A stretch of DNA of 64,000 nucleotides, taken from a virus. Position 1 is the stretch's first letter. Each line of letters begins with the position of its first letter. The DNA lies in IMG/VR virus record IMGVR_UViG_3300020045_006384, positions 36,001 to 100,000 of that record; one strand, 5' to 3'. The position numbers and the translations under genes are program-made. Shown here in pieces: positions 39,722 through 58,000 of the stretch. The notes beneath the pieces were generated by a model. The model was given only the letters and a program-made list of their open reading frames with translations, ran no database searches and had not been told where the DNA came from.

Positions 39722-40087
39722 TTATTTTTTTAAAAATCTTAATTTATATAATGTAGATGTAAGTAATTCTATAATATCATCACTTATTTGTTGTAAATAA
39801 CCATCTTCCAAAGTCAATCTATACTCTTCTATAGATTTAACACACTCTTTTAAATATGGTATAATTTCAATACCTTCTTTTAAAGTTATTTTATAACCTG
39901 TTATTATTTCATATTTACCTTGATAAGATTCAATAAATCTATCTCTTAAACCAACAATATCTTCATATAAACTATTTAAAGCTATATGATCTGAATATTT
40001 ATCTGTTTGTAAATGAGCTATGTGACTATTTATTTCTATATCAAATAGTAAACTTGCAAATTCTTGTACTTTCATTATTATAAACAA
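39722..40087 (-). CDS. ferritin/Dps-like four-helix protein
   Basis: H..HL.T..Y..H.AL..LY, D.FIE.YQG.Y, YKL.FL. Confidence 0.78.
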   Translation of the reverse strand: MFIIMKVQEFASLLFDIEINSHIAHLQTDKYSDHIALNSLYEDIVGLRDRFIESYQGKYEIITGYKITLKEGIEIIPYLKECVKSIEEYRLTLEDGYLQQISDDIIELLTSTLYKLRFLKK

Positions 40088-43000
40088 TATTTAATTACGT
40101 GTTCTCTTTCTTCTGGTGTCATTAAATCCCAGTCTTCTTTTGTTCTACCCGAACTTTCCCATTTAGTTTTATTTTTAGTAAAACCTTCTTCATCTACTAC
40201 AATATTTAATTCACTTTCAGTAATCTCACCATAACTTAAAGAATCTAAATCAAATTCTTCTTCTGAATTTATTTCAACTTCTTCAACTACATTAGATGCT
40301 TCAGTTATTTGTTCAACTTTAATATTATTAGTTTCAATTTCATTATCAATACTTTGCATATTTCTATCAAATACTACTAATTTTTGAAGTTTTATAATAT
40401 CATCATTAATTAATTCTGTATAATCATTAAAGTTATATAAAGTTTTGTTATTTAACTTTTTATCTAATTCTTGAATTCTAACATAAACACCTTTTTGTTC
40501 TATATCATAACCTATTAATTTATAATATCTAGGTTTAATTTTAACAGTTGGGTCAGCATCTGGTGAAGCTACAGTATGTAATTCTACATAATAATTTCCT
40601 TTTTTGTCATATAAATTAACAAAACCATTATTTATATTTACACCATCAGCTACAATATTATCTTTGAATACTTTTCTTACTAATTTTTTATCAGTTAAAT
40701 TATTTAAATAAAATTTATCTAAAAAATCATATTGATTTTGATTATTAATTTCATTAACTCTATTATTTATATCTTTTTGAATAAAATATTCAGCTGGAAT
40801 ATAAGTAAAAAATTGAGTGGTATTCATTTGAAACCCAGAAGTAATAAAAGAATATTTAATTAAATCTTCAGCTAATGATGGATTATCTATCATTAAATCT
40901 TTCCATGAATTAGTAAATAATGTTTCATATGCTGTAGATTTCTTTCTATTATTTAATTCAATACTAGATTGATATTTTTTAGATTTAGAAATTTTAATAT
41001 TTAATTCATCTAATAAAAAGTACTTACCTTTATTTTCTTCATTGAAATCATGTAATCTTTTAGGTAAATTAGTAAGTATATCATCATTTTCTTCAATAGA
41101 TATATCAAATACTTTGTTCAATAAATATGTATTATAATCTTTAGATAACTTTGTTACTAATTCAGAGTTAACTAAATTAGTACCATATAAATCATTAGAA
41201 ACTTCATTAAATATAGATTGTATTTGAGATGTACCTGTAGGAAATAACAAAGCATTGTTTTCTACTACGTTTTTAACCCATTTTAAGCTATTATAATAAG
41301 CTTCTAATGTTGTACCTTCAAACTTAGTATTAAAGCCTTTTATAGCTCCTATTACTTCATTATTAACTTTAGTCATTATTTGTTCTTTTTGATTAAATAA
41401 TGCAAATAAATCATTATGACTCTTACCCATACCATCAGTATCTAATTTAGATACAACAACATTTTCTCTTACATTTTTACTATACTCTTGTAATTCTTTA
41501 AAAGCATTAAGTAAATTAATTTGAAAATTAATATCTGGTGTTTTAGTAGTATTTTGATTTCTAAAATATTCTAAATTTAATTTATATTTATCCCATTGAT
41601 TAGTTTTTCTATCAAATATATTTAATTTATTAGGATTAAAAGCTATATCATGTTGTTGTTTCATATTATCAATAACTCTTGTTAATTCTTCAACAGGAAT
41701 TTTTAATTTTTTTAATAAAACTTCAGATACATTTTTAAAACTTTTATCTATACTTTCAATAGAACTATTATATTCTTGCAATGTAATAATTTTATTATCT
41801 AATTGATAAGCTAATCTTTCTTTTTTATAATCTATATTTAATTGACTAAAGTAATCTTTATATATATTACCAAGACTAATTGTATAACCTTCTACTTTAT
41901 CAAGTGCATTAATTACAATTTCTTTTTTAAATTTTTCAATTGTATCACCACTATCTTGAACATCTGTTAAACCCTCTTTAGATTTTTGAAAATCTACATA
42001 TTGTTTAATAATTGGATTTGCTAAAAAGTTAACTACATATAGTGGATGTGCTCCTAATCTAAGTAACATATTACCAACATTAGTTGTTGACATAATCCAG
42101 TTACCTTTTGAAATATAAGGATCTTTTGCAATATCCACAAATGCATTCAAAATAGCTGTTAATGAATCACCAATTTTTACTTTACGTAGTTCATCTTTAA
42201 ATTCATTAATTCGTTCTGTAGAACTATTAGGTTTAAGCATTTGAGCTACATAATAATCTAATTCTTCTTCAGACAATTCTTCTGAAAATTCTTCATCAAA
42301 TTTAGATTCATTTAATTCATTGCGATGACCCCATAATATATTTTTAACTCCTAATAAAGATAGATTACCTTCTCTACTAATATCAACCATTGCATTAGCC
42401 TCTTGACCAACTCCAGCTTTACCACCTAAAAAAGAGTATCTTAATTTAAGATCTACTTCTGGATCAAAATGATTCATAAATATAGTAGATGTACCTGGAA
42501 ATAAAGCATTAAGTTCGTTCTGTATAAAATCAATATCAATTGGTTTCATTACAGATTTATATACTTCAGGATGTGTTAATACAGATTTATATAATTCAAT
42601 TAATCTATTTTGTAATCCTTTTTTAGTAATATTGTTTTCATCATAATCATTATATTCTAATCTATCAGTTTCAGAATTTTTACTATAAGATGGAAACATT
42701 ACATACATTTTATCAACGTCAAAATCTGAACCTGTTTTAGTAGTAATACCTGTATAAGCTACAACAGTATCTCCAGATGCTTCTGGAAGTATTCCTACAA
42801 TTCTTAATGCATCATTAGATGCAAGACCTTGATTAGGAATTCTATAACCAATTATAGTTTCTTGTATTTTTTTATTAATAATAGGTTCACCACCATCATA
42901 GCTAACAAATAATTCTTCATTAGAATATTTTCTCCAATTAGGAACATATTTTGATAAAAATGATCCTGACAATAATATTCCACCTGGTTTAACAGTTGGT

Positions 43001-46000
43001 CTATTTGTATCTGGATTTACATAAATATAAGGTTCATTAGTAGTACTATCTGCTAATGGTGACCATCTAACTCCTTGTGATTCAGCTTCAATTTTATTTA
43101 AACCAAAGTTACTCATTTGAATAAATGAACCACCATTAGTTTTAATTTTAATAAGTCTGCTATTCATCACTGAAGCAAATATATTAAATAATTTACCTGC
43201 TGATTGTGGAATACCTACAATAGTTGTTTCTGCATTTAAAGCAGCTACTACATTCTCAGAACCACCTCTTTTAACTAATTCAGCAACTAATGATTTATAA
43301 AAACCTGATATATTACCAATCTTAAAATTATCATCAATTTTAAATTCTTTTTTAAGTGAATTTAAACCTTCATTAGTTAAACCTGTGACAGCTTTTACTA
43401 TTTCAGTAATAATTTGTTGACCATTATATAGATTACCATCTAATTCAAATCCTTTAAGAGTTTTATTATGTAATAAACCTGCAAATATATTTTTCTGAAT
43501 TTGTGAACCAACATCTAAATCTTTAAATGTTTTAGTTGGTAAATCTTGTTGAAGTTTCCAACCTCTATTAAATAAAGTTTGACTATTTAATTCAAATTCA
43601 TCTTTAATATTTCCATTATCATCATGTATTCTAGTTGGTTCAATAGATCCTACTTTTACACCATCAAATGTAATGACTTCATCAATTTTATCAGAATTCA
43701 TTTTATTGAATAATTTCTCTAAATCAGAATTTTTAACTAATGCTTGTGATAAAACAGCTTGTGAATATTTTAAATAAACCGGTTTACCAGAAGCATCTCT
43801 ATAAAAATATACACCTTTTAATGGTTGAGCAGCTAATTTAAGTTCTTTTTGAGTATAAATTAAATTTTTACCACTAGTATCCATCATTTTATGATATACA
43901 GATTCATGACTGTCTGCACCTGTAGTCCATTTACCTAAAGCTTTAATTAAAAATTTCCATCTTGCAGGAGTAATCCAAGCTTGTGCATCAGCACTATTTA
44001 TAGATTCATATGGTTTAGCTTCATTTTTACCTAAAGATTCAACTAATAAATCATAAAATGGTGATTTACGATTAACACTTTCAATTGTAGCAATTTTAAA
44101 TGTTTCATTATCTTTATTTATTCTTAATTGTAATCCATCAGTATATGTTGCAGGTACACGTTTTTTATAATCTACCATATTTTTATAGTAAGCAACGTCA
44201 CCACTAAACATTTTAGAAAATTCAATATTGTTAATTAATCCATTAACCATAAAATCTGAAGTAATAGCATAAGCCTTTTGTAATTCAGATATGTTTTTAT
44301 ATTGAGTATCTAATGTATTTTTATCTATTTTATTAGGAACAATAAATCCCTTAGCATTTCTAATAAAAATATCAGAACTTTGTAAATAATTTAAAGTTTC
44401 AGTAAATCTTTTATGAAAGTTTTCTTGAAGATATGAATCAAATAATTGATCTAATTCAGAATCTAATCCTCTTTCTAATAAACTATAATTAAATTCACTA
44501 TCTGTATATAAACGATCAGTTAATTGTTTTTCTAATTCAGTTTGATTTTTAGAATTAGGTGATAAATTTTCAAAATATTGAGATTTAAAAGCATTACCTG
44601 ATTTATCATAAACATTATCTGTACCATATTTATAATGATAATGAGGTGTTAATTTATCATTACTTATTCCATTATTAGCATTATCAACTTCATTACTTGC
44701 TTCTAACATTCTATGATATTCAGATGCAAAATAATTAAAGAATATATCTTTAGTTTGTTTCTTTAATTGTAATTGACCATCTACTATTCCATTATAAGAA
44801 GATACAGGTAAATTAAATTTAATCTGTAAATCTGTAGTTTTATCAGCAGGTGTAGTTGTTCTTGAAAATTCTCCAATAATTACTTTATTAATATAATCTG
44901 TAAGATAATCTTTATATGATAAATCAGTGGTTTTTTTAAAATCAGTTTCAGTACTCATTTGGTTCATAATACCTAAATCAATTTTATCAAGTAATTTACG
45001 AGATGCTTCGATTTGTTCTGCATTTGAATTATATCCTAGTTTATTACCAGTAACATCAGTAGAGGCTGTTAAAACTCCCATATAATAAGAACCTAATTGA
45101 TATTGACCTGATTTATATAAATCTAATAATATTTGAGGATTTCTTTTCCATTGATTAATAGTACTAGATAAATAAGATGGATAAGAATAAATCCACTTTT
45201 GTTTACCACCTGTTAATATAGTTGCATCAGAACCTTCAGTTAACATAAATGCTTCAGCAGCTGCTAATTTATTAAATGTTTGAGATAATGTTAAAAAGCT
45301 ACTATAATCTTTAGTTTCTTTTTCATATTTAGAACTAAGTCCTTTAACTACATATTCTGTTTGAATAGCTAATGTAAGTAAATTATTAGTCATATCTTGT
45401 AAAGAAATATCTTTACCATAATTATCTAAATATATTTGTAAACCTTCTTGAGTAGTTTCAATACCTAATGCTTTTAAAAATAAATTTATATCTTCAACTA
45501 ATTTAGTAAATTTAGGTTGTAATTCAGATTCAACACCAGTTTTAATAGATTTATTAAATTCTTGAATATTATCAATATTAGATTTAATAACTTTACCTGC
45601 ATTACTTATTCTTTTTACAGAATCATCTTTTAATTTATTAGTTTTAGATAAAAATATATTTTGAAAATTTTCATCCCATTGTTCTTTAACTTTTGTAGTT
45701 TTAGAACCTGTATCTGAAATTTGTAAATTTTTATGTGTAACTACATTATTTCTATCAGTAATATACTGACTAACAATATGATTATTTTTAATTAAATTAA
45801 AAGCTTGACTAAATTCACTTTTTTGATTTTCAGTAATGTCAGGACTATTTAAATAATCATGTAATTCTTTAAGAAAGGGTTTTTTTGATAATATGCGATT
45901 TAAAGCACTTTTATGTAATTCAAATATATCTTCACCAGGAAGTGGAATTTCTTCGCATAAAACACCCTGTAATGCAGCATAAACCATATCTCTGTTAAGA

Positions 46001-46758
46001 AAAGTAGGTTCATTCCAAATAGGATCTAAGTTTTCATTATCTTTAAGTAAACTTAATCTTAGTTTCACATTTGTACTTACACTTTTTTTAGTATTTCTTT
46101 CAGCAGAATGTTGATTAAATACTGGATCTTTACCTTCTTCTTCAACTATCCATTCACCATTTTCTTCATCTTCTTTAATTTCAAGATTCATTTCTTTAAA
46201 GAAACCTTCTACATTTGAAACTAATTCATCTAAATTATTTAAAGACTCTTCTAATGACATTGCTGAAAAGTATTCACCTTCTTCTTCTAAAGAATTAATT
46301 TTATCTTGAATTTCTTTAAGAATAAAATCTTTTAATTTAGGTAATGGTGAAGCTTTATCAAAATTAATATTATTAAAATCTAATTTAGATTTACTAAAAT
46401 AAGCTAATGCTAATCTAGATTTAATTTTATTAATTTGGTCATAATTCCAAATAGAACGAAGTCCTCTGTTAACTAAAGGAAAATATATTGTTTCATTATC
46501 TTTATTTAGATAATAATGTTTTTTAGCTGTTTCATTATAAAACAGTTTTGGTTCACCATTTTCATCTGTTCTATCAGATATAATATTATTATTATAATCT
46601 TCAATAAAATTACCAAAATCTTTTTTAAAAAGCTCACTTTTAAAATGACTAAACATTTCATCAGCGAGCTGTTCATTTTGATTTGCTAAATTATTATAGA
46701 TTGTATCAAATAATATTGATTCGGATTTACCTGTAATTGATACTCTTGTACATGCCAT
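40078..46758 (-). CDS. virion-packaged single-subunit RNA polymerase (phi14:2 gp66-like)
   Basis: 2226 aa; YRIPNQ and catalytic GSDFDVDK; KRVPA, DAQAW; typical crAss size and location. Confidence 0.92.
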   Translation of the reverse strand: MACTRVSITGKSESILFDTIYNNLANQNEQLADEMFSHFKSELFKKDFGNFIEDYNNNIISDRTDENGEPKLFYNETAKKHYYLNKDNETIYFPLVNRGLRSIWNYDQINKIKSRLALAYFSKSKLDFNNINFDKASPLPKLKDFILKEIQDKINSLEEEGEYFSAMSLEESLNNLDELVSNVEGFFKEMNLEIKEDEENGEWIVEEEGKDPVFNQHSAERNTKKSVSTNVKLRLSLLKDNENLDPIWNEPTFLNRDMVYAALQGVLCEEIPLPGEDIFELHKSALNRILSKKPFLKELHDYLNSPDITENQKSEFSQAFNLIKNNHIVSQYITDRNNVVTHKNLQISDTGSKTTKVKEQWDENFQNIFLSKTNKLKDDSVKRISNAGKVIKSNIDNIQEFNKSIKTGVESELQPKFTKLVEDINLFLKALGIETTQEGLQIYLDNYGKDISLQDMTNNLLTLAIQTEYVVKGLSSKYEKETKDYSSFLTLSQTFNKLAAAEAFMLTEGSDATILTGGKQKWIYSYPSYLSSTINQWKRNPQILLDLYKSGQYQLGSYYMGVLTASTDVTGNKLGYNSNAEQIEASRKLLDKIDLGIMNQMSTETDFKKTTDLSYKDYLTDYINKVIIGEFSRTTTPADKTTDLQIKFNLPVSSYNGIVDGQLQLKKQTKDIFFNYFASEYHRMLEASNEVDNANNGISNDKLTPHYHYKYGTDNVYDKSGNAFKSQYFENLSPNSKNQTELEKQLTDRLYTDSEFNYSLLERGLDSELDQLFDSYLQENFHKRFTETLNYLQSSDIFIRNAKGFIVPNKIDKNTLDTQYKNISELQKAYAITSDFMVNGLINNIEFSKMFSGDVAYYKNMVDYKKRVPATYTDGLQLRINKDNETFKIATIESVNRKSPFYDLLVESLGKNEAKPYESINSADAQAWITPARWKFLIKALGKWTTGADSHESVYHKMMDTSGKNLIYTQKELKLAAQPLKGVYFYRDASGKPVYLKYSQAVLSQALVKNSDLEKLFNKMNSDKIDEVITFDGVKVGSIEPTRIHDDNGNIKDEFELNSQTLFNRGWKLQQDLPTKTFKDLDVGSQIQKNIFAGLLHNKTLKGFELDGNLYNGQQIITEIVKAVTGLTNEGLNSLKKEFKIDDNFKIGNISGFYKSLVAELVKRGGSENVVAALNAETTIVGIPQSAGKLFNIFASVMNSRLIKIKTNGGSFIQMSNFGLNKIEAESQGVRWSPLADSTTNEPYIYVNPDTNRPTVKPGGILLSGSFLSKYVPNWRKYSNEELFVSYDGGEPIINKKIQETIIGYRIPNQGLASNDALRIVGILPEASGDTVVAYTGITTKTGSDFDVDKMYVMFPSYSKNSETDRLEYNDYDENNITKKGLQNRLIELYKSVLTHPEVYKSVMKPIDIDFIQNELNALFPGTSTIFMNHFDPEVDLKLRYSFLGGKAGVGQEANAMVDISREGNLSLLGVKNILWGHRNELNESKFDEEFSEELSEEELDYYVAQMLKPNSSTERINEFKDELRKVKIGDSLTAILNAFVDIAKDPYISKGNWIMSTTNVGNMLLRLGAHPLYVVNFLANPIIKQYVDFQKSKEGLTDVQDSGDTIEKFKKEIVINALDKVEGYTISLGNIYKDYFSQLNIDYKKERLAYQLDNKIITLQEYNSSIESIDKSFKNVSEVLLKKLKIPVEELTRVIDNMKQQHDIAFNPNKLNIFDRKTNQWDKYKLNLEYFRNQNTTKTPDINFQINLLNAFKELQEYSKNVRENVVVSKLDTDGMGKSHNDLFALFNQKEQIMTKVNNEVIGAIKGFNTKFEGTTLEAYYNSLKWVKNVVENNALLFPTGTSQIQSIFNEVSNDLYGTNLVNSELVTKLSKDYNTYLLNKVFDISIEENDDILTNLPKRLHDFNEENKGKYFLLDELNIKISKSKKYQSSIELNNRKKSTAYETLFTNSWKDLMIDNPSLAEDLIKYSFITSGFQMNTTQFFTYIPAEYFIQKDINNRVNEINNQNQYDFLDKFYLNNLTDKKLVRKVFKDNIVADGVNINNGFVNLYDKKGNYYVELHTVASPDADPTVKIKPRYYKLIGYDIEQKGVYVRIQELDKKLNNKTLYNFNDYTELINDDIIKLQKLVVFDRNMQSIDNEIETNNIKVEQITEASNVVEEVEINSEEEFDLDSLSYGEITESELNIVVDEEGFTKNKTKWESSGRTKEDWDLMTPEEREHVIKYCL

Positions 46759-46771
46759 ATTTTATAATTTA

Positions 46772-46806
46772 TACAAATATACGAAATTAATTTGATATAA
46801 CCAAAT
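46772..46806 (-). promoter_or_regulatory. Bacteroidota-type promoter upstream of the vRNAP gene
   Basis: Minus strand ATTTGGTTATATCAAATTAATTTCGTATATTTGTA; TAnnTTTG at 46774-46781. Confidence 0.72.
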
Positions 46807-49800
46807 TATAATCCACATATTTTTTTAATTTCTTGTTGTAAAGTTTCGTTGTCTTTAAGTTCTTTAAATAATTCATTAAAACTAGAAGTCATATCTTTAG
46901 GATTAACTTTGTCCATCATTCCTAATTGCTTAGCTATTACAGCAACTATTTTAGCTTTAGTTTTAGCATCTGCATCTTTAAATATATCACTTAAGTTATT
47001 AGATTTAATAGTTTTAACTTCAATATTAGGTGTTGAAATTTCTGTTTTATTAATAAAATTTGAAATTTGACTTATATCAGTTATTAATACTTTTCTAGAA
47101 TTTGAACCATCAAACTCACCTATTATACCTGCAATTTCTAATTGTTCTAATATTGTAGCAGCTCGATTATAACCCAATCTTAATCTTCTTTGAATTAAAT
47201 TTGCTGATGCTTGTTTTTCAGTTATAAAAATTTTAACAACTTCTTCAAAATTTTCATCAATATTTTCAATTTCTACAAATGGAAGTATTTTTAAATCTGA
47301 AGTATCATTTAAATTTTCTGTTATAGTATTAGATTTAGGTTTAGGTGCTATATTTGTACTTGTTGTAACTATATCATCACCAAACATTCCTTCTAACGAA
47401 CCTAATAAATCTTCTGTAGTATCTAGTTTAACTTCTTTAGTTTCTTCAGCTACAACTTGTTTTTTAGCTTTTTTATTTACAACAGTTTGATCTAAATATA
47501 TATTAGAATAACCTTGAAATGTTGGTTCATTAACTACAGCATTAGTTGTTAATACAGCATAATCTGAATTAATACCTAATAAATATTTAATATAATCATC
47601 ATTATTAAATGTAGCAGAATTATCTTTAGTAATTAAAACATTATGTCTTTTATATTTAAGATATTCTACAATTGCTTGTTTTTGATTATTATCTAAATTA
47701 TTTAAACTATCAGTAGTATAAGTATAACTTTCTAATTGACCACTCCATTCTGGAATTTGTGAATTAACTTTATGTAATAATTCTCCTAATACTAATTTAC
47801 CGTCATTACCTAAAATTAATTTAGTTTTAGCGTTTGTATTTTGAGAAAATACTACAAAGTTAATTACTTTTTCTAAAGTAACATCAATACTATCATTATT
47901 GTTTTTAACAAAATTAAATTCAGTTAATAAACTTGGTAAGTTATCTGTAATATATTTTTCTAGTTCATCTATATTAAACTCTTGTTGTTTATTTAATATA
48001 TTAGAACGTAATATAATTAAATCTAATACAGATTCAGCTTTTTCATCACTTAATCTACTAGTATTTAACTTTAAATAAAATATTTCACCATTAATCATTG
48101 GTATTTTAAGAAACACTTCACCTTTATTACTACTTGATAAAACTTTAGTATTATCAGTTACATTATTAGAAGTATACTTAACTTCTCCTTTATTAGTAAC
48201 ATATACTGTATTCTTTTTAAAATACTTAATTTTATCTTCTTCAGACATACCTTTAAATACATCTAACTCTAATATATTAGAATTTTGTTCACCTAATTTA
48301 AGAGCTCCTGTGAATTGTTTATTAACTTTACCTACAATACCATCAAAAGAACCTTTGTTTTCAATTAAAGCATTTATAATACTTCTACGAAGTGGTAATG
48401 TTTCTATTTCTACAATCTTTGGTGATTGACTTGACATAGAATCAATAAATGATGTTGCTGAATTACCTTTATTAGATAAAGTAACACTAATTGGTAAATA
48501 CTTAGCAGCATATTCAATCTCATCTTTAGTTAAAGTTTCACCATTTTTAATTCTTTTAAAAATTTCATTTGCAGTAAAAGATTCATTTTTAGGATTAATA
48601 TTACCTACATCAAAAGTTACTCTATCTTTAGTTTTATCTCTAGGTTCTTTTTCATAAGTTACAAAACTTTCTAAATTAGGAAATAATGCTTGACCAGTAG
48701 TAAGATTTGTGCTTATAATTCTAGCAGCACCTTGATTCTTAGCAACATTTGTTGGATTAGTAGCTTCATTTACTGATTGAATACCATTTGCACTTTTATC
48801 TAAAATATTATCAGACTTATCAACTTCTGGATTATCAGAAGTTTGTACTGTTTCTAAACCTTGAACTGTTGATTCTATTACAGATTCTTTAGTTTCAGGT
48901 GTTGTATCAGTTGTTATAATTGAGTCTTTTTCAAACTTTTCTTTATCTTTATCTAAAGCTTCAACTTCATTAATTTGTTTTTGTAAAGCTTGAGCTTCTT
49001 TAATTTTTCTAAATTGTTCTTGAACTTCTTCACTAATAATATGATTATCTTTTTGACTTTTAGGTAATTTAGAAAAGTAATTTTTTAAATCTTCTTCATC
49101 TTCAAATGATTTAATTGTATCTAAAACTTCTTGAGCTTCTAAAACTTTTTCTTCAGATACTTCTTTAGTTTCAGTTTCTTCTGCTTCTATATAATCATTA
49201 AAACTTTTATTAATTAATTTACCTTGCCAAATTTCAGAAATAGATTTTTTATTATCTTTTATATCAGATTCTATTTCTCTAATTTTATCATTAGTTTGTT
49301 TTAATAATTCATTAGTTGTTTCAGCTTTAATTAATAATTCATCTTCAGTTTGTAAATTATTTTCTAAACCAATTTCTTCTAAAATATTATTTCTTTTAGC
49401 TTCTTCTGTTTTTAATGATTTTTCAAGTTGTCTAAGAACATGTTTAGTATTTAAATAACTTGTATTTAATTTATTTAAAAAATTAGTTCTTTGTTCAGGA
49501 GTTGCTTTTTCATTTTCAAGTTGAATTACATCTTTACTAAAATCTGTAAATTTTTCATTTTGTTCTTGAAGATATCTTGCAGTTTCTAAAGTTTCTTTAA
49601 CAAAAGTTTTTGTTTTGTTTTTTTCATCAGAAACACTATCTCTTTCAATTAATTCATTAAATTTGCTATCAGCATTAAGTTTTTGTTCTAAAGCAGTTAA
49701 ACCAGCTTCACCATTAAATATTGCAGGTGTAATTAAATTAAAAATAGCATCTTGTTTTATTTTTTCAACTATATCTATATTACCTGATTCAATTGCTAAA

Positions 49801-51320
49801 TCTAATAGTTCAGATTGTTGTTCTGTATAATTTAAAGCTTTAACAACTTCTCTTACTTTTCTATTATCTAATTTTCTTTTAGATGTAAATTGACCTTTAG
49901 AATTTCTTTCATAAATATATTTACCATTTTCATCAGTTTGATAAATATCATTATCAAAAGTTGTATTAAAATTAGTAATTTGTTTATCAATATTATCTAA
50001 AATTAGATTAGTATTTCTTCTATTTCTAACATCTGATTTTCTACCTTGGTATGACATCATTGGTCCGCCAATTGCTCCACCTAAAAATATTGCTTTTTGA
50101 CCTTCTGTAGTACTTACAGTATTAACATATTCTTTAGTAAAGTCACCAATAGAAGCATCATTTAAAAAACTTTTACCAAGTTCACCACGCATTGCTTTAT
50201 CAACGTACATATTTTCAACAGTAGTTTGAGAACCTTCTTCCCAAAAACCTTCTGTTGCAAATGCACCACCAACTCTACCAAGACTAACACCTACTCTTTC
50301 TGCAATAGCTTTTATACCTTTCTCTGTTGTTTTTTCAAATGTTTGAGAAGCTTTACCCCAAAGAGCTTTGTGCATTATAGCATTTGGTCCAAGTAATATT
50401 CCAACATTTGCTATAAAAGTATCTTTCATTGCAAGAGATCTTTGTTCAACAAATAATTGTTCAGCTTCTTCAGGAGTATAACCTTTATTAATATAAGTAT
50501 TTAAAAAGTCATCTTTTTTAGAATCTAAATCATCACCTACACCTTTTGCTTCAGCACCTGCTTCAAATATAGTATTTCCAAAAATAGCCATACCGCTATC
50601 AATATTTCTACCACTAACACCCATAAACTTTAAAGTGTTTACAGCATCTTCAGCTTTACCAACCATTGATGTATATTTAGCTAATTTAGAAGAATTAGCT
50701 AAGGTGTTAATTAATTTACCACCTAAACCTGCATATTGAAATATTGCTCCAGGAACAAACATTGCAGCAACGAAACCAATACCATCAGCGCCATCAGTTG
50801 CCCAAAATGAACTAGATGATATATTATCCCATAAGTTACCTTCTTTAACAGCTTTAGCAGTATAAACTGGTAATAAATCAGTATTTACTTTTTCATGTAC
50901 TTCATCTAATACTTTTATCCAACTATTATTAAAAGCAGTATCCATTCCTTTACCATCTTCTGCAAATGGTGCAGCCATAGAACCAACAATTACTCCAGGT
51001 AGTTTAGCTACTTCAGTTAATGCTTTAGAAGTAGCTCTACCAAGACCTTTTGTTAATTGTTCAGCACCAGATTGATTACTAGCTCTTATTTCATTATATG
51101 GATCTTCTGCATTTAAATCTACAAATTGATTAAGAAGTGGATTTATACCTTCTCTTAATTCATCTTGATTAGAACTATCAAAATTAATACGATGTACTTC
51201 TGTATCAAAAGCATTATTTGTAGCTAATTTTTTATTAGTAGGTGTATTAAAAGATTTATAGTTATTATCTAAAGACTTTAAAAACTTTTCATCATAACTA
51301 TTTAATTCTTCTTCTTCCAT
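46806..51320 (-). CDS. giant virion (cargo/ejection) protein with TM-like segments, coiled coils and an FtsK-gamma domain near the C-terminus
   Basis: 1504 aa; Gly/Ala-rich hydrophobic N-terminal part; ASANLIQRRLRLGYNRAATILEQLE.AGIIG...G...RKVL. Confidence 0.82.
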   Translation of the reverse strand: MEEEELNSYDEKFLKSLDNNYKSFNTPTNKKLATNNAFDTEVHRINFDSSNQDELREGINPLLNQFVDLNAEDPYNEIRASNQSGAEQLTKGLGRATSKALTEVAKLPGVIVGSMAAPFAEDGKGMDTAFNNSWIKVLDEVHEKVNTDLLPVYTAKAVKEGNLWDNISSSSFWATDGADGIGFVAAMFVPGAIFQYAGLGGKLINTLANSSKLAKYTSMVGKAEDAVNTLKFMGVSGRNIDSGMAIFGNTIFEAGAEAKGVGDDLDSKKDDFLNTYINKGYTPEEAEQLFVEQRSLAMKDTFIANVGILLGPNAIMHKALWGKASQTFEKTTEKGIKAIAERVGVSLGRVGGAFATEGFWEEGSQTTVENMYVDKAMRGELGKSFLNDASIGDFTKEYVNTVSTTEGQKAIFLGGAIGGPMMSYQGRKSDVRNRRNTNLILDNIDKQITNFNTTFDNDIYQTDENGKYIYERNSKGQFTSKRKLDNRKVREVVKALNYTEQQSELLDLAIESGNIDIVEKIKQDAIFNLITPAIFNGEAGLTALEQKLNADSKFNELIERDSVSDEKNKTKTFVKETLETARYLQEQNEKFTDFSKDVIQLENEKATPEQRTNFLNKLNTSYLNTKHVLRQLEKSLKTEEAKRNNILEEIGLENNLQTEDELLIKAETTNELLKQTNDKIREIESDIKDNKKSISEIWQGKLINKSFNDYIEAEETETKEVSEEKVLEAQEVLDTIKSFEDEEDLKNYFSKLPKSQKDNHIISEEVQEQFRKIKEAQALQKQINEVEALDKDKEKFEKDSIITTDTTPETKESVIESTVQGLETVQTSDNPEVDKSDNILDKSANGIQSVNEATNPTNVAKNQGAARIISTNLTTGQALFPNLESFVTYEKEPRDKTKDRVTFDVGNINPKNESFTANEIFKRIKNGETLTKDEIEYAAKYLPISVTLSNKGNSATSFIDSMSSQSPKIVEIETLPLRRSIINALIENKGSFDGIVGKVNKQFTGALKLGEQNSNILELDVFKGMSEEDKIKYFKKNTVYVTNKGEVKYTSNNVTDNTKVLSSSNKGEVFLKIPMINGEIFYLKLNTSRLSDEKAESVLDLIILRSNILNKQQEFNIDELEKYITDNLPSLLTEFNFVKNNNDSIDVTLEKVINFVVFSQNTNAKTKLILGNDGKLVLGELLHKVNSQIPEWSGQLESYTYTTDSLNNLDNNQKQAIVEYLKYKRHNVLITKDNSATFNNDDYIKYLLGINSDYAVLTTNAVVNEPTFQGYSNIYLDQTVVNKKAKKQVVAEETKEVKLDTTEDLLGSLEGMFGDDIVTTSTNIAPKPKSNTITENLNDTSDLKILPFVEIENIDENFEEVVKIFITEKQASANLIQRRLRLGYNRAATILEQLEIAGIIGEFDGSNSRKVLITDISQISNFINKTEISTPNIEVKTIKSNNLSDIFKDADAKTKAKIVAVIAKQLGMMDKVNPKDMTSSFNELFKELKDNETLQQEIKKICGL

Positions 51321-51323
51321 TTT

Positions 51324-53300
51324 TTAATTTTTATTAGTTCCGTATTGTTTAATTAATACAGAAGGGTTAACTCCTCTTTTAGCAGCTCTTAAATTTAAAG
51401 CTGTTTGTGCATCAGAATCACTAGTATATCTTTGTGCTAATTGATTATTTGTTAAATCACTATATGCATTACTAATTAATGAAGTTGATACTTCTGAACC
51501 TTGGAAATTACCAGTTACTTGATTTATACCACCTTTATCTTTCCAAAAATCTGCAATAGCACCACTTAAATTTTTATATCCAACTGCAGATTTTGTATCA
51601 AATGCATTTGAGAATTTTTTAAGTTTAAATGTAACAGTTACAGGTTTCTCAGCTCCACCATATTCATCACTCCAACTAGTTTCTCCAGCTATATCATATT
51701 CAGGAGCTTCTTTAGTTGTATTAAATGTCATTGTTATTTCAGGTGTTTTTGCATCACCATATGTTTTGATATTATTAATTTTAAATGATTTTGGATCACC
51801 ATGTTTTAATAAATCTTGAATATTTTGAGTATCTTTATCATTAAGATTTTTCTTAGTTCCACCAGTTGTATAAATACTTGTTAAATCTAATACATTACCT
51901 AAGTCAACACCTTTCATTACATTATAAACATTTTCATTATGTAAATTCCAAGCAGATTCTTCTTTAGGTGTAGAAGGTAAATAAGAATAATTGTGTCTTA
52001 ATGAAGAAGATTCTTTCCAAGCTTTATCTTTAACTTTTTGTCTTTCTACATTTACATGAGAAAATTCACCTTTTAATTTATCTATATTAGAATTAGCACC
52101 AGCAGCTAAATTTAATCTTGTAAAGTAATCAACATCATCTTCACCTTTTTTTCTTGGTAAATCTCTTTTTTTACCTTCAGCTTCTAACTGTGCAGAAACT
52201 TTCTTGTATTGTTGATCTAATTTTTGATATTCTTTATTTACTTTTAATTTAGCATCAGCATTTTGTCTTAGCTCAAGTAAATCTTCTAATCTAGCTTTAT
52301 CTGAAGGACTAGTACTTTTGCCTGAGTTTAATCTTTTAATTTCAGTTAGTGCATCTGTATACCCAGATTGATTAACTGCATCTGATGTTAAAGTACTATC
52401 ATTACTAATAATAATTCCTGAAGGATCTACATTTTTTTCTGGAGCAGAATATCCTTGAATTGAATAATCAGTTTCTCTAGTGTCATCTAATTTGTAAGAT
52501 TTCATCATACCTAAACCATTATTAATTTCATCAATAATTCTTTTAGGATCTTGTCTTTCAAATTTAGCAGACATTGTTCCTTCACCAGTAGGTTGAATCC
52601 ATCTACTATTTAAATATTCTTGAGCTTCTTTTAATTGAGGATAATTACTAGTTTCAACAACTCGTCCTTTACCATCCATTACAATAATACTACCATTTGG
52701 ACCTTCTCCAAAATTAAAACCATTATTTTTCATAACAGTTTGTGTGTTTTCTCCTAATAAAGATTTAACTGTTTTTAAATCTTCTTGTAAAACATGTCTT
52801 TTTGGTGCACCATATGAATCAATATTTTTAATATTTTTAACATCATCATATCCTGTATATTTAGGATGATGTTGTGTCTGCCAATTATATAATGCATCTT
52901 CTCTAGAAAATCCTTTATTTTTAGTAGCATCTTCTAAATAATCTTTAAATTCTTCAGCATATACTTTTTTAGCATTATTAATTTGACCTATTCTACCTGT
53001 TGGTGATACTAAATCTTGATATTCTTTATTAAACTTTAAAAATGAACTTCTAGCTTCTGGTGTAATACCATTTGCTGCTAAATTTTGTGATAAAGAACTT
53101 ACTTTACCTTCAATTTCATTTTTAAGACGAAGTGCTTCATCTTTATGTACATCTAAAGGATCTGTATTAACTCTAGCATTTATATAGGCTGTTTCTAATT
53201 CATCATGTTGTTTACGTTTCATCATAGGAACAAATGCAAGCTCCTGAAAACTTTGAGGTCTATAAGCAGAAACACTGCCATTATCAAAACGATTTGCCAT
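51324..53300 (-). CDS. putative virion/cargo protein
   Basis: 658-aa ORF in the structural operon. Confidence 0.7.
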   Translation of the reverse strand: MANRFDNGSVSAYRPQSFQELAFVPMMKRKQHDELETAYINARVNTDPLDVHKDEALRLKNEIEGKVSSLSQNLAANGITPEARSSFLKFNKEYQDLVSPTGRIGQINNAKKVYAEEFKDYLEDATKNKGFSREDALYNWQTQHHPKYTGYDDVKNIKNIDSYGAPKRHVLQEDLKTVKSLLGENTQTVMKNNGFNFGEGPNGSIIVMDGKGRVVETSNYPQLKEAQEYLNSRWIQPTGEGTMSAKFERQDPKRIIDEINNGLGMMKSYKLDDTRETDYSIQGYSAPEKNVDPSGIIISNDSTLTSDAVNQSGYTDALTEIKRLNSGKSTSPSDKARLEDLLELRQNADAKLKVNKEYQKLDQQYKKVSAQLEAEGKKRDLPRKKGEDDVDYFTRLNLAAGANSNIDKLKGEFSHVNVERQKVKDKAWKESSSLRHNYSYLPSTPKEESAWNLHNENVYNVMKGVDLGNVLDLTSIYTTGGTKKNLNDKDTQNIQDLLKHGDPKSFKINNIKTYGDAKTPEITMTFNTTKEAPEYDIAGETSWSDEYGGAEKPVTVTFKLKKFSNAFDTKSAVGYKNLSGAIADFWKDKGGINQVTGNFQGSEVSTSLISNAYSDLTNNQLAQRYTSDSDAQTALNLRAAKRGVNPSVLIKQYGTNKN

Positions 53301-54943
53301 TATTTTCTTCCTATTTTATTCATTTTTATAAATCCACCATATGCTTTTGGTTGCAGCTTTGATTGTGCAATTGCATCTTCATATGCTATTTTTTCTCCAG
53401 TTTTTTTATCAATCATATATTTACCATCCCAAGAATAACCAAGTGATTCAGCAATTTGATTTTTATTAACTTCTTCTCTACCAACTTCTCCAAGATCAGT
53501 TCCAATAGCAGCTAAATATTTAGATTTTTCATTTCTAACAGAGGCTTCATTTTGTTCCCAATTTTGTTGTTCTTGATGTTGTGTTTGTGCATTAAATTGA
53601 TCTAAATTACTATTGAAATTTTGTGCTCTATCATTAGTAGCTATATTTTGAGCTTTAGCATTAATATAAGCATTTGATAAAGCTTTATTTCTATTTAAAC
53701 CTGCACCAAGTATTGCATTTCTAACAGCACCTTCTGAACCACCACTTTGAGTAATTGAATTAACAGTGTTATCCATATCATTACCTGCAATATTTTGTAG
53801 TGTCTTTTCATCTACATATTCTGGATTATATCTACCAGACATTCTATCTAATCTTTTATTTTCAGCAGGTTTTAATTTAGATAGTTGATAAGCATTCATT
53901 GCAACTGGTGCATATTTTAAAAACTTACCACCATTTTTATCTAAATAATCACCCACTTTTGATAAATCTGCTTTAGGATAAGTTGTTGCTATTTTATTAG
54001 AATTTGGTGCTAATTCAGGATTAGAATATCCATTTCTTTCAGATAAATCATTTATTTCAACACCTGGATTTAAACCTTCTAAATTAGGTGCTTCAGTTGC
54101 ACCCGCATCAGGTTTTGGAAATTTTGTAAATGGATAATCAAATTTAGAATTACCAAGAACCCCTTCATATGGGTTAACTTTAGTAAAGTTAGGATATATT
54201 GGACCACCTAATGCAAAATCACTTGAAAAATTAGAAATATTTTTAATAGCTTCTTGTTGAGCCATTTCTTGTTCTTTCTTTTTATTTAATAATTTAGATA
54301 CTAATGGTGATACAGCTTTACCAACTGTACTACCAATCATACCACCTACTGGACCACCAATTGCAGTTCCAGCTAAACCTAAACCTGTTTCTACACCAGA
54401 ATTAATCATTTGTTCTTTATCACCACTTAATAATGAAGGTAACATTTTAGTACCTGCACTAAGATAAGGATTCATACCTTCTTCACCTTCAGGAACTTCA
54501 CCACCCATAAACATTGCTTCAGATTGTGCAAATTCTTCCATACCTTCTGGAATTTCACCATTCATCATATCTGGAACTTGTTGTGAATTAGCCATCATAG
54601 ACTGATTCATTTGAGCTTCTTGTGCTTTAATAGATTCTTGAGCTTTAGCTAATCTATCTAATAAAGTATTTTTAGTTTCAGTTGCATATTTATCTTGTCT
54701 ATCTTTAAATTTATCATTAATAGCTTTAGATGCATCAGCAATAGTTTTATTTTTAATATAGTTAGGTAAATTAAATTGCTTAACTAAATCTTCATTAATT
54801 GGAATTCTATTTGAATAAACAAAATTACCAGTCTTAGTTTCACCTTGTTCAACATTAGCATTTGGACCTACAGGAATACCACCAAGAGGATTTTGAGAAT
54901 GAAGTCCACCTTCATTAAATTCTGTTAATTGATTATTTGGCAT
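53300..54943 (-). CDS. putative virion/cargo protein
   Basis: GGLHSQNPLGGI..VEQGE N-terminus, Gly-zipper segment, Q/N/A-rich tail. Confidence 0.7.
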   Translation of the reverse strand: MPNNQLTEFNEGGLHSQNPLGGIPVGPNANVEQGETKTGNFVYSNRIPINEDLVKQFNLPNYIKNKTIADASKAINDKFKDRQDKYATETKNTLLDRLAKAQESIKAQEAQMNQSMMANSQQVPDMMNGEIPEGMEEFAQSEAMFMGGEVPEGEEGMNPYLSAGTKMLPSLLSGDKEQMINSGVETGLGLAGTAIGGPVGGMIGSTVGKAVSPLVSKLLNKKKEQEMAQQEAIKNISNFSSDFALGGPIYPNFTKVNPYEGVLGNSKFDYPFTKFPKPDAGATEAPNLEGLNPGVEINDLSERNGYSNPELAPNSNKIATTYPKADLSKVGDYLDKNGGKFLKYAPVAMNAYQLSKLKPAENKRLDRMSGRYNPEYVDEKTLQNIAGNDMDNTVNSITQSGGSEGAVRNAILGAGLNRNKALSNAYINAKAQNIATNDRAQNFNSNLDQFNAQTQHQEQQNWEQNEASVRNEKSKYLAAIGTDLGEVGREEVNKNQIAESLGYSWDGKYMIDKKTGEKIAYEDAIAQSKLQPKAYGGFIKMNKIGRK

Positions 54944-54965
54944 TTTATTATTATTTATTAGTTAT

Positions 54966-54998
54966 AAAAAAAGGAGAAGAAAATTAATCCTTCTCCTT
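54966..54998 (-). terminator. intrinsic terminator
   Basis: Minus strand AAGGAGAAG-loop-CTTCTCCTTTTTTT. Confidence 0.75.
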
Positions 54999-55024
54999 AG
55001 TTATTTATTATTAAATGAGTTATA

Positions 55025-55058
55025 TACAAATATACAAAATATTTATATATAAAACAAG
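55025..55058 (-). promoter_or_regulatory. Bacteroidota-type promoter
   Basis: Minus strand CTTGTTTTATATATAAATATTTTGTATATTTGTA; TAnnTTTG at 55027-55034. Confidence 0.62.
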
Positions 55059-55086
55059 TTTTTATTTATTTATTTTATATTATATT

Positions 55087-58000
55087 TTAATACGTCGTAT
55101 AATAAATGTTTAAATCGTGTAATATTAATTTTAAATTATCAGGATTATTAAACTGAACTTTAAGTTTCATATACGGAGATCTAATTCTATTTCTAGTTTG
55201 TCTAGGAATTAAAGCATTCCAATCTCTAAATTTACGTCTAAGATTATTATTTCTTCCAACAATTAATGGTATTAAACCACTATCTTGATAATCATTATAA
55301 GCTTGTATGTTAGTTAAAGTTCTATTTACTTGATCTACATTATTTAAAGTAACATCTGATTTAAAATTAATATTATTAAATACACAATCTTTATTAGGTT
55401 CAGGATTAACATTAAATATAATACTAGAAGGATATTTAACACCATAAAAAGTATTGTACTCTCCTGCGTATTGTAAATAAATACTATCATTTAAAGGATT
55501 TGTAGTTATTAAATAATGACCTTTTGAAATATATCTATTTGGAATATAATCATAAAAACTTGTAAAAGATTGTTTACTTTCATTATAACATATTGTAAAT
55601 GGTTCATCTTGATGAAAAGTCATAAACAATTCGTTATTTATATAATCATATCCAGAATTTACACCTGTACCAATTAATGGGTTATCTATTTTAAGCTCAT
55701 TTAAGACAGTATTATTTGTAAAATATATATGCATACCTTTTTCATCAGATAATCCTTTTAAACTACCAGTATAACTATTTAATGACTTATTTAAAGTATC
55801 ATAGTAATATAATGTAGAAGGTGAGCTAATTACTGACCATTTATTTAAAGTTCCAGATTCTGTAGAAATATAATTATAATCATCTAATACTTGACCAGTT
55901 CCTAACTGTAAAGATAAACCATCATCACCTTGAACTTGAACTCTAGGATTAATTGATAATCTTGCAAAACCTGTATCTTGTAAAGTATATAATTCATCTT
56001 TATGAGAATGTAAACAATTAATTGGTCCATATTGACCTTTTAATGTTAAAACATTATTTACTTCTATATCTGTCCAATTGTCAATTACTTCACCTGATGA
56101 TTTTAATTTACTACATATTACATTAGTATCAAATGAATTAATTCTTTTAAATTTATAATCTAAATCTCTACGTAATATTAAAGTAGGTTCTTGAGAATAA
56201 ACTTTATTATATCTTTGATACTCTTCATATCTAGGTTGAAATCTAGCATCCCATTCTTCTAAAGAAAAATCATTTCTATTTTTTAAATCAATAGTTGTTT
56301 CAACTTTAAATTCTACAATTTCTGTAAATTGAAAAGAACTTCTTGAATAAGTTTCAGTGTCTGTTTTTACTAATTTAGTAAATTTAAAGTTAGATATAAA
56401 AGTATCTCCTGCATGTTTACAATTATATATATTTTCATTAATGTCATTGTATTGACCAATTTCAATATAATTTGTTCTTTTTTTAGATTCATAAGAGTTA
56501 CCACCATATATATTACCAAGATATACTAATAGTTGAGGTATTCTAAATTCACATATTAAACCTGTACCAGTATCTATTATACCAGATGATGTATATAAAT
56601 CTTCAATTCCTTCTCTATCTTCAGTATCTAAAGTTCCATCTCCTAAAGCAAATGTAATATTTTTAGCTCCCCAAGTATTAACAGAATTTAATATCATATC
56701 TGCAGATAAGTTTTCTAAAGAATTATAAAAAACCATATCTCCATCATTATTATATGTTGTTCTACCTTGAGCTTTTTCAACTAATAAAGGTGTACCATAT
56801 ATATCTTTATATGTATTTAAAGTATCTGAATTTAAAAAATTACCAGTATATCTTCTATATGTTTGAACAAAATTCATTTCACCTTCTTGACCATGTCCAA
56901 AAAAACCATGAAATTGAATTTGATCTCTTTCACCAAAATTTAATTCAAAATTTCCAGTGTCATATGCTTTAATATCATGAGGTGATATAGTATTAAAAGC
57001 TTTACCTTCTGTTGTAACTTGTTTTGTTTCAACTTGTCTAACTTGAGCCCAATTAGCATTATAATCATTTTCAAATCCACCTATATTAACTATTGTGCAA
57101 TCACCTAAAGATTGTAAACTATTAAAAGTTACTTCTGGTGAAAACAATTGCATTAGTTTATTAAATTGATACGTACCTGCTGTCCATTGACCTGATTCTT
57201 CAGCTTTATAAACTTCATTACCTGCATCATCATTTACTGAACCTGGTAAAGTATTATTAGCAAATTCAGGATGTGCTTCATCAAATCTATCTACTCTAAA
57301 ATAACTTTTATTTCTCCACATTGGAAATAAATATTCATCAAATCTTCGCATCATTGATGGAATTTTTAAACCACCATTAACTCTATTGATATAATCTACT
57401 TCTAAAGGATCTTCTTCATTATCCCCAGTATCATCACCTATAACTTGAGATAACATACCATTAATAAGACCTTGACAAATAATTGTTCTGTCTAATAATG
57501 TTCTTTCTGCTCTTAATAATTTATAACCTACTGGTTTTAATGAATCATCATAATTACCATTTTCATCTAAAAAATTATTATTATCAGCTAACCAAGTATA
57601 AAATAAAGATTTTAATGTTATTTCAACAGATGCATAATAACCATTTAAATTAGATTCATCATTTACAACAATTGTTTTAAAATCAGCAATCCATTTAGGT
57701 AAACTATTTTGACCATATTTATTATAAAATTGAATACCTAATCTATAAATTTCATTATCTTTTAAAAATTTATTTTCAGTATCTTCAACTGTAAAATCAA
57801 AATCTCCAATTTGATTTCTTACAATTTTATATTTTAAATAAGCACCTTCTCCACCAATAATAGTATTATTAAATTGTTTATTATTAATATCATAATTAAT
57901 ATTAATAGTTGAATTATCAAATGGTACTGTATTAACACCTGATATAATATCTACATCAATAGTTATAGGTGCTTCTAATGAATCTAATACACCAGAATTA

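Follow-up and report, generated by a model that had tools for sequence, protein, structure and literature searches.

An FtsK gamma winged-helix domain in a gp67-like virion protein of a crAss-like phage

The carrier protein and its gamma domain

We examined a stretch of 64,000 nucleotides (nt) of DNA from a marine crAss-like phage, positions 36,001 to 100,000 of IMG/VR record IMGVR_UViG_3300020045_006384 (hereafter the window), which forms the last 64 kb of a 100-kb record that bears terminal repeats and was judged complete. An earlier note on this DNA had pointed to an FtsK/SpoIIIE gamma signature near the C-terminus of a 1504-amino-acid (aa) protein, between low-complexity linkers. The gene of this protein, hereafter the carrier, lies on the minus strand and is divided as follows.

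46806..51320, minus strand: gene of the gp67-like virion (cargo) protein, 1504 aa, which carries the domain (open reading frame; homology to g067 of phage phi14:2)
47373..51320, minus strand: conserved body, residues 1-1316 (alignments and hydropathy scan)
47262..47372, minus strand: upstream slot linker, residues 1317-1353, disordered and variable (predicted local distance difference test, pLDDT, 47-62)
47079..47261, minus strand: FtsK gamma winged-helix domain, residues 1354-1414 (Pfam, genome scan, PDB matches, AlphaFold2 and Foldseek)
47019..47078, minus strand: downstream linker, residues 1415-1434 (AlphaFold2 model)
46809..47018, minus strand: conserved C-terminal helical tail, residues 1435-1504, ending ...KKICGL (pLDDT 85-94)

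The 59 residues quoted in the earlier note are the exact translation of window positions 47082-47258 on the minus strand and correspond to residues 1355-1413 of the 1504-aa open reading frame. The Pfam profile FtsK_gamma (PF09397) matched residues 1354-1414 over profile positions 3-63 of 63 (E = 5.2e-22) with a score of 77.8 bits, the curated Pfam cut-off (gathering score) being 30.6 bits. The isolated 59-mer scored 82.9 bits with this profile, and a whole-genome profile scan yielded 83.6 bits for FtsK gamma at the same location. No other Pfam domain was recognized in the carrier. The region was also matched by eight PHROG families holding the same module, and its sequence matched solved gamma domains of the Escherichia coli and Pseudomonas aeruginosa FtsK proteins (2J5P, 2J5O, 2VE8/9, and 5DCF) with E values from 5e-10 to 8e-9. 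Judged by these scores, the strength of the match is far beyond chance.

In an AlphaFold2 model of the last 218 residues, the domain was predicted as a three-helix winged helix (three helices plus wing) with a pLDDT of 92-98, the linkers on both sides had a pLDDT of 45-62, and a confident helical C-terminal tail followed. All of the top 10 Foldseek matches in the PDB were FtsK gamma structures (target TM-score 0.74-0.92, root-mean-square deviation 0.8-1.6 Å), with a target TM-score of 0.81-0.92 for 2J5P, 2VE8, and 2VE9. The profile search and the structure prediction were both positive, and together they identify the feature as a complete FtsK gamma domain with a predicted winged-helix fold. 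The signature, its place near the C-terminus, and the linkers around it, which coincide with the low-pLDDT flanks, were all recognized correctly in the earlier note.

Because the RecA-type alpha/beta motor (PF01580, PF17854) is absent N-terminal to the gamma domain, the carrier is, by its domain content, not an FtsK. Neither motor profile matched the carrier, and PF01580 (FtsK_SpoIIIE) had no match in the 100-kb genome, in agreement with the claim that the module occurs without its motor.

By sequence similarity, the carrier is an orthologue of gp67 of Cellulophaga phage phi14:2, with 28% identity to g067 over residues 79-1286 (E = 2e-67); g067 is annotated in its record as a virion structural protein by tandem mass spectrometry (MS/MS). 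The body consists of a Gly-rich N-terminal region with hydrophobic segments, a helical middle part rich in K and E, and a distal domain that is conserved. Three hydrophobic segments (residues 101-119, 181-199, and 302-320) were located by the hydropathy scan within the Gly-rich N-terminal 420 residues. Residues 76-421 (window positions 50058-51095, minus strand) were also 25-27% identical to 'structural proteins' of the Cellulophaga phages phi4:1 and phi17:2, 145-kb phages that match the carrier only in this N-terminal region, and a human faecal contig matched as well. This suggests that the Gly-rich, partly hydrophobic N-terminal domain may be a widely shared ejection or membrane module.

At the other end of the protein, a modeled helix (H131-142 of the 218-residue model, residues 1417-1428 of the carrier) continues from the gamma domain, and residues ~1429-1438 (model 143-152), just ahead of the conserved tail, are predicted to be disordered (pLDDT <50). 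The tail was detected in 27 orthologues (E ≤ 1e-3), and its ICG[LFI] ending was also present in more distant orthologues; the terminus of phi14:2 gp67 differs (...NTIC). This ~70-residue tail is conserved across gp67-family proteins that differ greatly just upstream of it, and might serve as a signal for packaging or portal docking, or as a processing site.

The carrier gene stands in a block of virion genes. The order on the minus strand is muzzle protein, cargo protein 1, a 658-aa protein, the 1504-aa carrier, a 2226-aa protein, a 121-aa open reading frame, and a 1600-aa protein.

55087-59181, minus strand: muzzle protein (Pfam crAss_MUZ 676.6 bits, crAss_MUZ_C 58.9 bits)
53300-54943, minus strand: cargo protein 1 (Pfam crAss_CARG1 62.8 bits)
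51324-53300, minus strand: 658-aa protein
51324..59181, minus strand: the upstream virion genes as a block (Pfam for cargo protein 1 and muzzle protein)
40078..46758, minus strand: virion RNA polymerase (vRNAP), 2226 aa, orthologue of phi14:2 gp66 and next gene downstream of the carrier (homology)
34916..39718, minus strand: 1600-aa protein at the phi14:2 gp65 position (gene order)

The base composition of this phage is extreme: the GC content is 25.2% for the genome and only 5.2% at the third codon positions (GC3) of the carrier gene, where several 60-codon windows stand at 0%. The 2226-aa protein was 29% identical to phi14:2 gp66 over ~1780 aligned columns (E = 9e-159). In the 1600-aa protein, a weak SprT-like/zincin Pfam match (residues 272-341, E = 0.087) covers an HEIAH motif. 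Orthologues of gp65 are RNA polymerase (RNAP)-associated and described as carrying a zincin-like protease; virions of phi14:2 contain gp65, gp66, and gp67, of which gp66 has to accompany the DNA into the cell, and the three are fused as one polyprotein in some crAss-like phages (Drobysheva et al., bioRxiv 10.1101/2020.03.07.982082).

Both its homology to gp67 and its position between the cargo/muzzle genes and the vRNAP gene place the carrier among the RNAP-associated cargo proteins of Crassvirales. In phicrAss001, such proteins are capsid-stored cargo, believed to leave partly unfolded and before the DNA; ejection from N- to C-terminus was proposed for cargo protein 1, and ~6 copies of each were estimated (PMC10172136). 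The claim that the giant proteins flanking the vRNAP are ejected at infection stands as far as the virion is concerned, as the orthologue of the carrier was found in virions by MS/MS and the carrier gene adjoins that of the vRNAP; ejection of the carrier itself we infer.

An optional cassette in a hypervariable slot

The distribution of the domain was assessed in a set of 107 orthologous proteins from a database search, in which P0002 is the carrier of the window. A full gamma domain was found in three of them: P0002, P0004 (80% identical), and P0005 (77%). In the alignment of the closest relatives, it was flanked by two conserved blocks, the end of the body (...LLGSLEGMFGDD), which was detected in 92 proteins of the set, and the ~70-residue C-terminal tail. 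The distance between the body end and the tail ranged from 23 to 584 residues among the 27 orthologues in which both blocks were detectable. An unrelated insert of 114 residues occupied the slot in P0006, and P0008 and P0010 held others. The distant orthologue P0031 had a wing-less gamma-like stretch in the equivalent slot, with a score of 28.2 bits, below the 30.6-bit cut-off. The gamma domain is an optional bead-on-a-string cassette, carried on disordered linkers between the body and the C-terminal tail. The comparison with related phages proposed in the earlier note came out as foreseen, as most orthologues lack the insert, the closest one (91% identical) included.

Of 49 related IMG/VR records, among which 15 are at least 90% complete, none had a gamma domain anywhere, and no Crassvirales record was among the gamma matches in 50,697 phage records. 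In a 102-kb 'faecal phage' record (H30), a gamma domain stood at the C-terminal end of an 883-aa open reading frame; this candidate was rejected, its placement being FtsK-like and no match to the carrier body being present. The slot inserts of P0006 and P0013 had no match in Pfam or the protein atlas. The contigs encoding P0003-P0006 were not found in a viral-contig scan and two metagenome scans, and an alignment-based viral-contig scan returned only relatives of at most 61% identity.

The slot of the window's carrier is bracketed by an imperfect 34-nt direct repeat (window positions 46974-47007 and 47304-47337, 71% identity, spacing 330 nt). The two copies have an exact 11-nt TATTAGATTTA in common, and both encode K-S-N... 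The 11-nt repeat was considered as the mechanism of a deletion in P0003 and was rejected, since the gap in P0003 does not coincide with it.

Signs of other domains came from further members of the family. The C-terminal 295 aa of phi14:2 g067 (P0259, L001:16300-17187) had GNAT matches below the cut-off (Acetyltransf_7, E = 0.019; Acetyltransf_1, E = 0.057), centered on a ...AYRRKGIASSVY... stretch, and the variable region may here hold an enzyme as its payload. In the orthologue P0083, residues 897-1007 matched the ART-PolyVal ADP-ribosyltransferase domain with 36.2 bits (cut-off 31.2 bits), a similarity that links the carrier family to the polyvalent proteins.

Descent of the domain

A FastTree phylogeny of the body grouped the closest proteins as ((P0004,(P0002,P0003)),(P0005,P0006)), with a support of 1.0 for the clade and for P0002 plus P0003. 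The simplest account on this tree is that the common ancestor of the small phage clade had the gamma domain, which P0003 lost and P0006 replaced. The three gamma copies were 82-85% identical (54-56 of 66 residues), compared with 77-83% for the body. Their linkers differed in sequence and length, the upstream one having 48 extra residues in P0004. Conservation of the domain at the level of the body, while the linkers diverge, argues for selection on the fold and also for dispensability.

Among cellular genomes, a chromosomal FtsK gamma domain was found in all 81 Flavobacteriaceae sampled, at 47-59% identity to the phage domain (55-66 bits), and in 51 Arcobacteraceae genomes the FtsK gamma domain was 37-54% identical (37-58 bits). 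That Arcobacteraceae seemed to be the nearest source was traced to a pattern pre-filter and rejected; even sampling puts Flavobacteriaceae closer. Nothing outside the phage family was closer than ~58% per domain among 1.84 billion representative proteins. The view that the nearest gamma domains belong mostly to small non-FtsK proteins was rejected as well, their whole-protein scores being inflated by tandem gamma domains. Measured per domain, many of the best short matches were 54-86% identical to Flavobacteriaceae FtsK C-termini.

In a FastTree phylogeny of the domain, whose support is modest given a length of only ~60 residues, the three phage gamma domains were monophyletic (support 1.0). 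The surrounding clade of 35 members (support 0.89) takes in all four Flavobacteriaceae FtsK proteins of the tree (L134-L137), without any further genome-derived sequence. The phage copies had as immediate neighbors motor-less gamma-HNH, gamma-LRR, and tandem-gamma proteins. By tree placement and identity, the domain was captured from a Flavobacteriaceae-type (Bacteroidota) FtsK lineage. The donor may have been an FtsK gene or an already motor-less derivative, both of which fit the tree. The description of the module as host-derived can be upheld at the level of lineage, because the nearest cultured relative infects Flavobacteriaceae. The GC3 was 3% for the gamma domain and 5% for the whole gene. 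Its capture appears to be old, because the codon composition is fully phage-like and the divergence from any cellular copy is at least 41%.

The search also revealed a substantial number of proteins, mostly unnamed and metagenomic, in which one to three FtsK gamma domains in tandem occur without a motor. These domains were joined to HNH, TIR, Mrr_cat, LRR, DUF4236, AAA, and other domains (P0111 and P0118 are among the examples).

Possible roles of the domain

Compared with the FtsK/SpoIIIE gamma domain (PF09397), the phage domain has the same fold and belongs to the same sequence family, with a full-length match and both the GYNRAA recognition helix and the wing intact. It differs in that no alpha/beta motor accompanies it in the carrier or the phage genome, in that it is internal and not C-terminal, in that it sits in a phage virion protein, and in that a Thr replaces the base-reading Arg equivalent to R1300. 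The carrier fits the polyvalent proteins (Iyer, Burroughs, Anand, de Souza, Aravind 2017, PMC5512222) in its giant size and its place in a virion gene block, and it may likewise be delivered with the DNA. Unlike them, it has one recognized domain, with no ART-PolyVal, zincin MPTase, MuF, ArdC-N, or methylase-helicase, and its group, the RNAP-associated cargo proteins of Crassvirales, goes unmentioned in the PMC5512222 survey.

With phi14:2 gp67 (Drobysheva 2020/2021), the carrier shares an orthologous body and the position upstream of the vRNAP gene, gp67 being virion-borne, whereas gp67 is without a gamma domain and its 525-aa tail is unrelated to that of the carrier. The likeness to the phicrAss001 cargo (Bayfield 2023, PMC10172136) is one of kind only (RNAP-associated, capsid-stored) and is set by description. 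Small terminases of Bacillus phages (vB_BcM_Sam46, MN604698) likewise contain a motor-less FtsK gamma domain, 43-44% identical and presumably recognizing phage DNA, but there it is N-terminal in a small packaging protein and not part of a giant ejected one. A full-text literature search found no published description of an FtsK gamma domain in a crAss-like phage protein. The kind of event is already known, since a 2017 paper (PMC5512222) reports FtsK winged helix-turn-helix (wHTH) domains from giant polyvalent proteins that are delivered; the gamma domain of the carrier is a further example of this theme and not a new kind of system.

The role we favor, and to which we give an even chance, is that of an accessory tether for double-stranded DNA (dsDNA) on an ejected protein of polyvalent type, with DNA binding expected from the domain family. 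The 2017 survey counts the FtsK wHTH as one of the rare dsDNA-binding modules that polyvalent proteins carry, and it proposes a tether role for these modules (PMC5512222). The family has polyvalent-like traits, namely the predicted ART-PolyVal domain in one orthologue, the weak GNAT-like tail of phi14:2 gp67, and the zincin in gp65 orthologues. Each virion would contain several copies of the carrier, which would leave before the genome, probably with the membrane-active N-terminal region in front. Under such an N-to-C order, put forward for phicrAss001 cargo protein 1, the gamma domain would come out close to the trailing C-terminal end and adjoin the leading end of the phage DNA and the co-ejected RNA polymerase. 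Because gamma binds weakly as a monomer and cooperatively as a trimer, several copies could clamp duplex DNA, which would keep the ejected polymerase module on the incoming genome; covalent gamma trimers bind DNA better than monomers (PMC3384302). The module would improve this process and not be essential to it.

Several observations weigh against a tether. The slot of P0003, a relative of 91% identity, is without an insert, and the domain is dispensable in that it is absent from this relative and from nearly all orthologues. Presence in virions is known only for the phi14:2 orthologue, at 28% identity. The other inserts, being unmatched, give no sign that the slot is a general site for DNA-binding modules. 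A search of the phage genome for an over-represented or strand-skewed motif, as a possible target carried by the phage itself, found none, the power being low for 100 kb at 25% GC. The best strand-skewed 6-8-mers in the 100-kb genome reached p ~1e-4 among 1100-2260 words, which was nonsignificant after correction for multiple tests, and for the phage genome the search for skewed octamers proposed in the earlier note was negative. The word TTAGGTC had a strand count of 13:0 and was located mostly inside genes.

We consider it unlikely that the domain is a passenger or decaying remnant, acquired by chance in a recombination-prone linker and without a selected function. Its loss in P0003 and replacement in P0006, the sub-threshold stretch of P0031, and a slot that tolerates inserts of 0 to ~560 aa would all fit such an origin. 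Against this, the domain is full-length, its score is 2.5-fold the Pfam cut-off, the confidence in its predicted fold is very high, and it has been conserved on a par with the essential body while the adjacent linkers diverged and changed length. Its full amelioration indicates long residence.

Equally doubtful is a more demanding role, in which the gamma domain would be a specificity module of the crAss-like ejection and transcription machinery, brought in as several copies at the trailing end of gp67 just before the genome, and recognize a defined site on the phage DNA end, the host chromosome, or XerD. If this were true, such a module at the leading phage DNA end would dock the vRNAP for the first round of transcription, and on the host chromosome or XerD it would stall chromosome resolution. 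The residues that bear on these targets were compared with E. coli FtsK. The residues of E. coli FtsK that contact XerD are Q1288, R1289, R1292, I1293, G1294, and N1296 (Table 1 of PMC5052618), and its variant that is blind to FtsK-orienting polar sequences (KOPS) is mutated at R1300, E1303, and E1306 (PMC2680272).

A delivered gamma domain might contact a XerD-type recombinase of the host and switch recombination at dif or dif-like sites on or off, with the host chromosome resolution disturbed or the phage DNA acted upon; we regard this as quite improbable. The XerD-contact positions read Q, R, R, L, G, N here and Q, R, R, I, G, N in E. coli (five of six identical, one conservative), the minimal activating peptide RQFRIGYNR corresponds to RRLRLGYNR, and the likely host lineage is the one whose FtsK gave rise to the domain. 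These contact residues, however, double as DNA contacts and are conserved in almost all gamma domains, and hence do not discriminate, and the R1292 position is a Ser in both of the other gamma-bearing phages (P0004 and P0005). The phage genome encodes no tyrosine recombinase, the nearest cultured relative runs an early/middle/late lytic expression programme with a virion RNAP (Drobysheva et al., bioRxiv 10.1101/2020.03.07.982082), and the domain is dispensable.

Binding to the host chromosome, where the domain would compete with host FtsK at oriented motifs and block segregation or division, or anchor the ejection complex on the nucleoid, is in our view very improbable. Descent from a Flavobacteriaceae-type FtsK gamma domain speaks for it, as does a recognition helix (GYNRAA..LEQLE) that keeps the equivalents of E. 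coli E1303 and E1306. In the alignment to E. coli FtsK, however, the KOPS-reading positions R1300, E1303, and E1306 read T, E, and E, and in E. coli the single change R1300A is enough to impair KOPS recognition (PMC2680272). The R1300 position is not conserved among the three phages, with Arg in P0004, Lys in P0005, and Thr in the phage of the window. The Arg of P0004 sits in GYNRAGRI, the same heptad as in Flavobacteriaceae-type gamma domains, and because P0004 keeps this Arg, the Thr is a derived change at a base-reading position. The replacement argues for a relaxed or altered specificity and not for that of host KOPS. The chromosomal sites would far outnumber the few copies brought by a virion, and competition would gain little, since E. 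coli blind to KOPS grow normally (PMC2680272).

The functions suggested in the earlier note, namely gripping or orienting DNA via oriented motifs, competition with host FtsK for KOPS, and engagement of XerCD, gained no support beyond a generic DNA- and XerD-contact surface, given the lack of a skewed 6-8-mer, the Thr at the R1300 position, the lack of a phage-encoded recombinase, and the dispensability of the domain in close relatives.

Least credible of all is a protein-protein adaptor or anti-defense decoy, whose winged helix would mimic the DNA-sensing head of host defense proteins or recruit a host factor: the partners of the 60 top-scoring gamma proteins among the 1.84 billion representatives do include TIR, Mrr_cat, HNH, Schlafen/AlbA_2, and AAA, and the immediate tree neighbors are motor-less gamma-HNH and gamma-LRR proteins, but this basis is purely associative, and the simpler explanation for a shared DNA-binding domain is that both kinds of protein bind DNA.

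Whether or not it acts as an accessory tether, the separable and well-defined domain of predicted DNA-binding type gives an experimental handle on the uncharacterized RNAP-associated cargo proteins of crassviruses; a 2026 study of N4 ejection proteins calls for work on the three giant proteins packaged with the vRNAP of crAss-like phages (PMC13434306). The natural gamma-plus and gamma-minus variants offer a comparison. The hypervariable cassette slot documented here in the gp67 family is where lineage-specific payloads should be sought, and the domain itself provides a dated example of a part of a host FtsK entering the pool of phage-delivered proteins.

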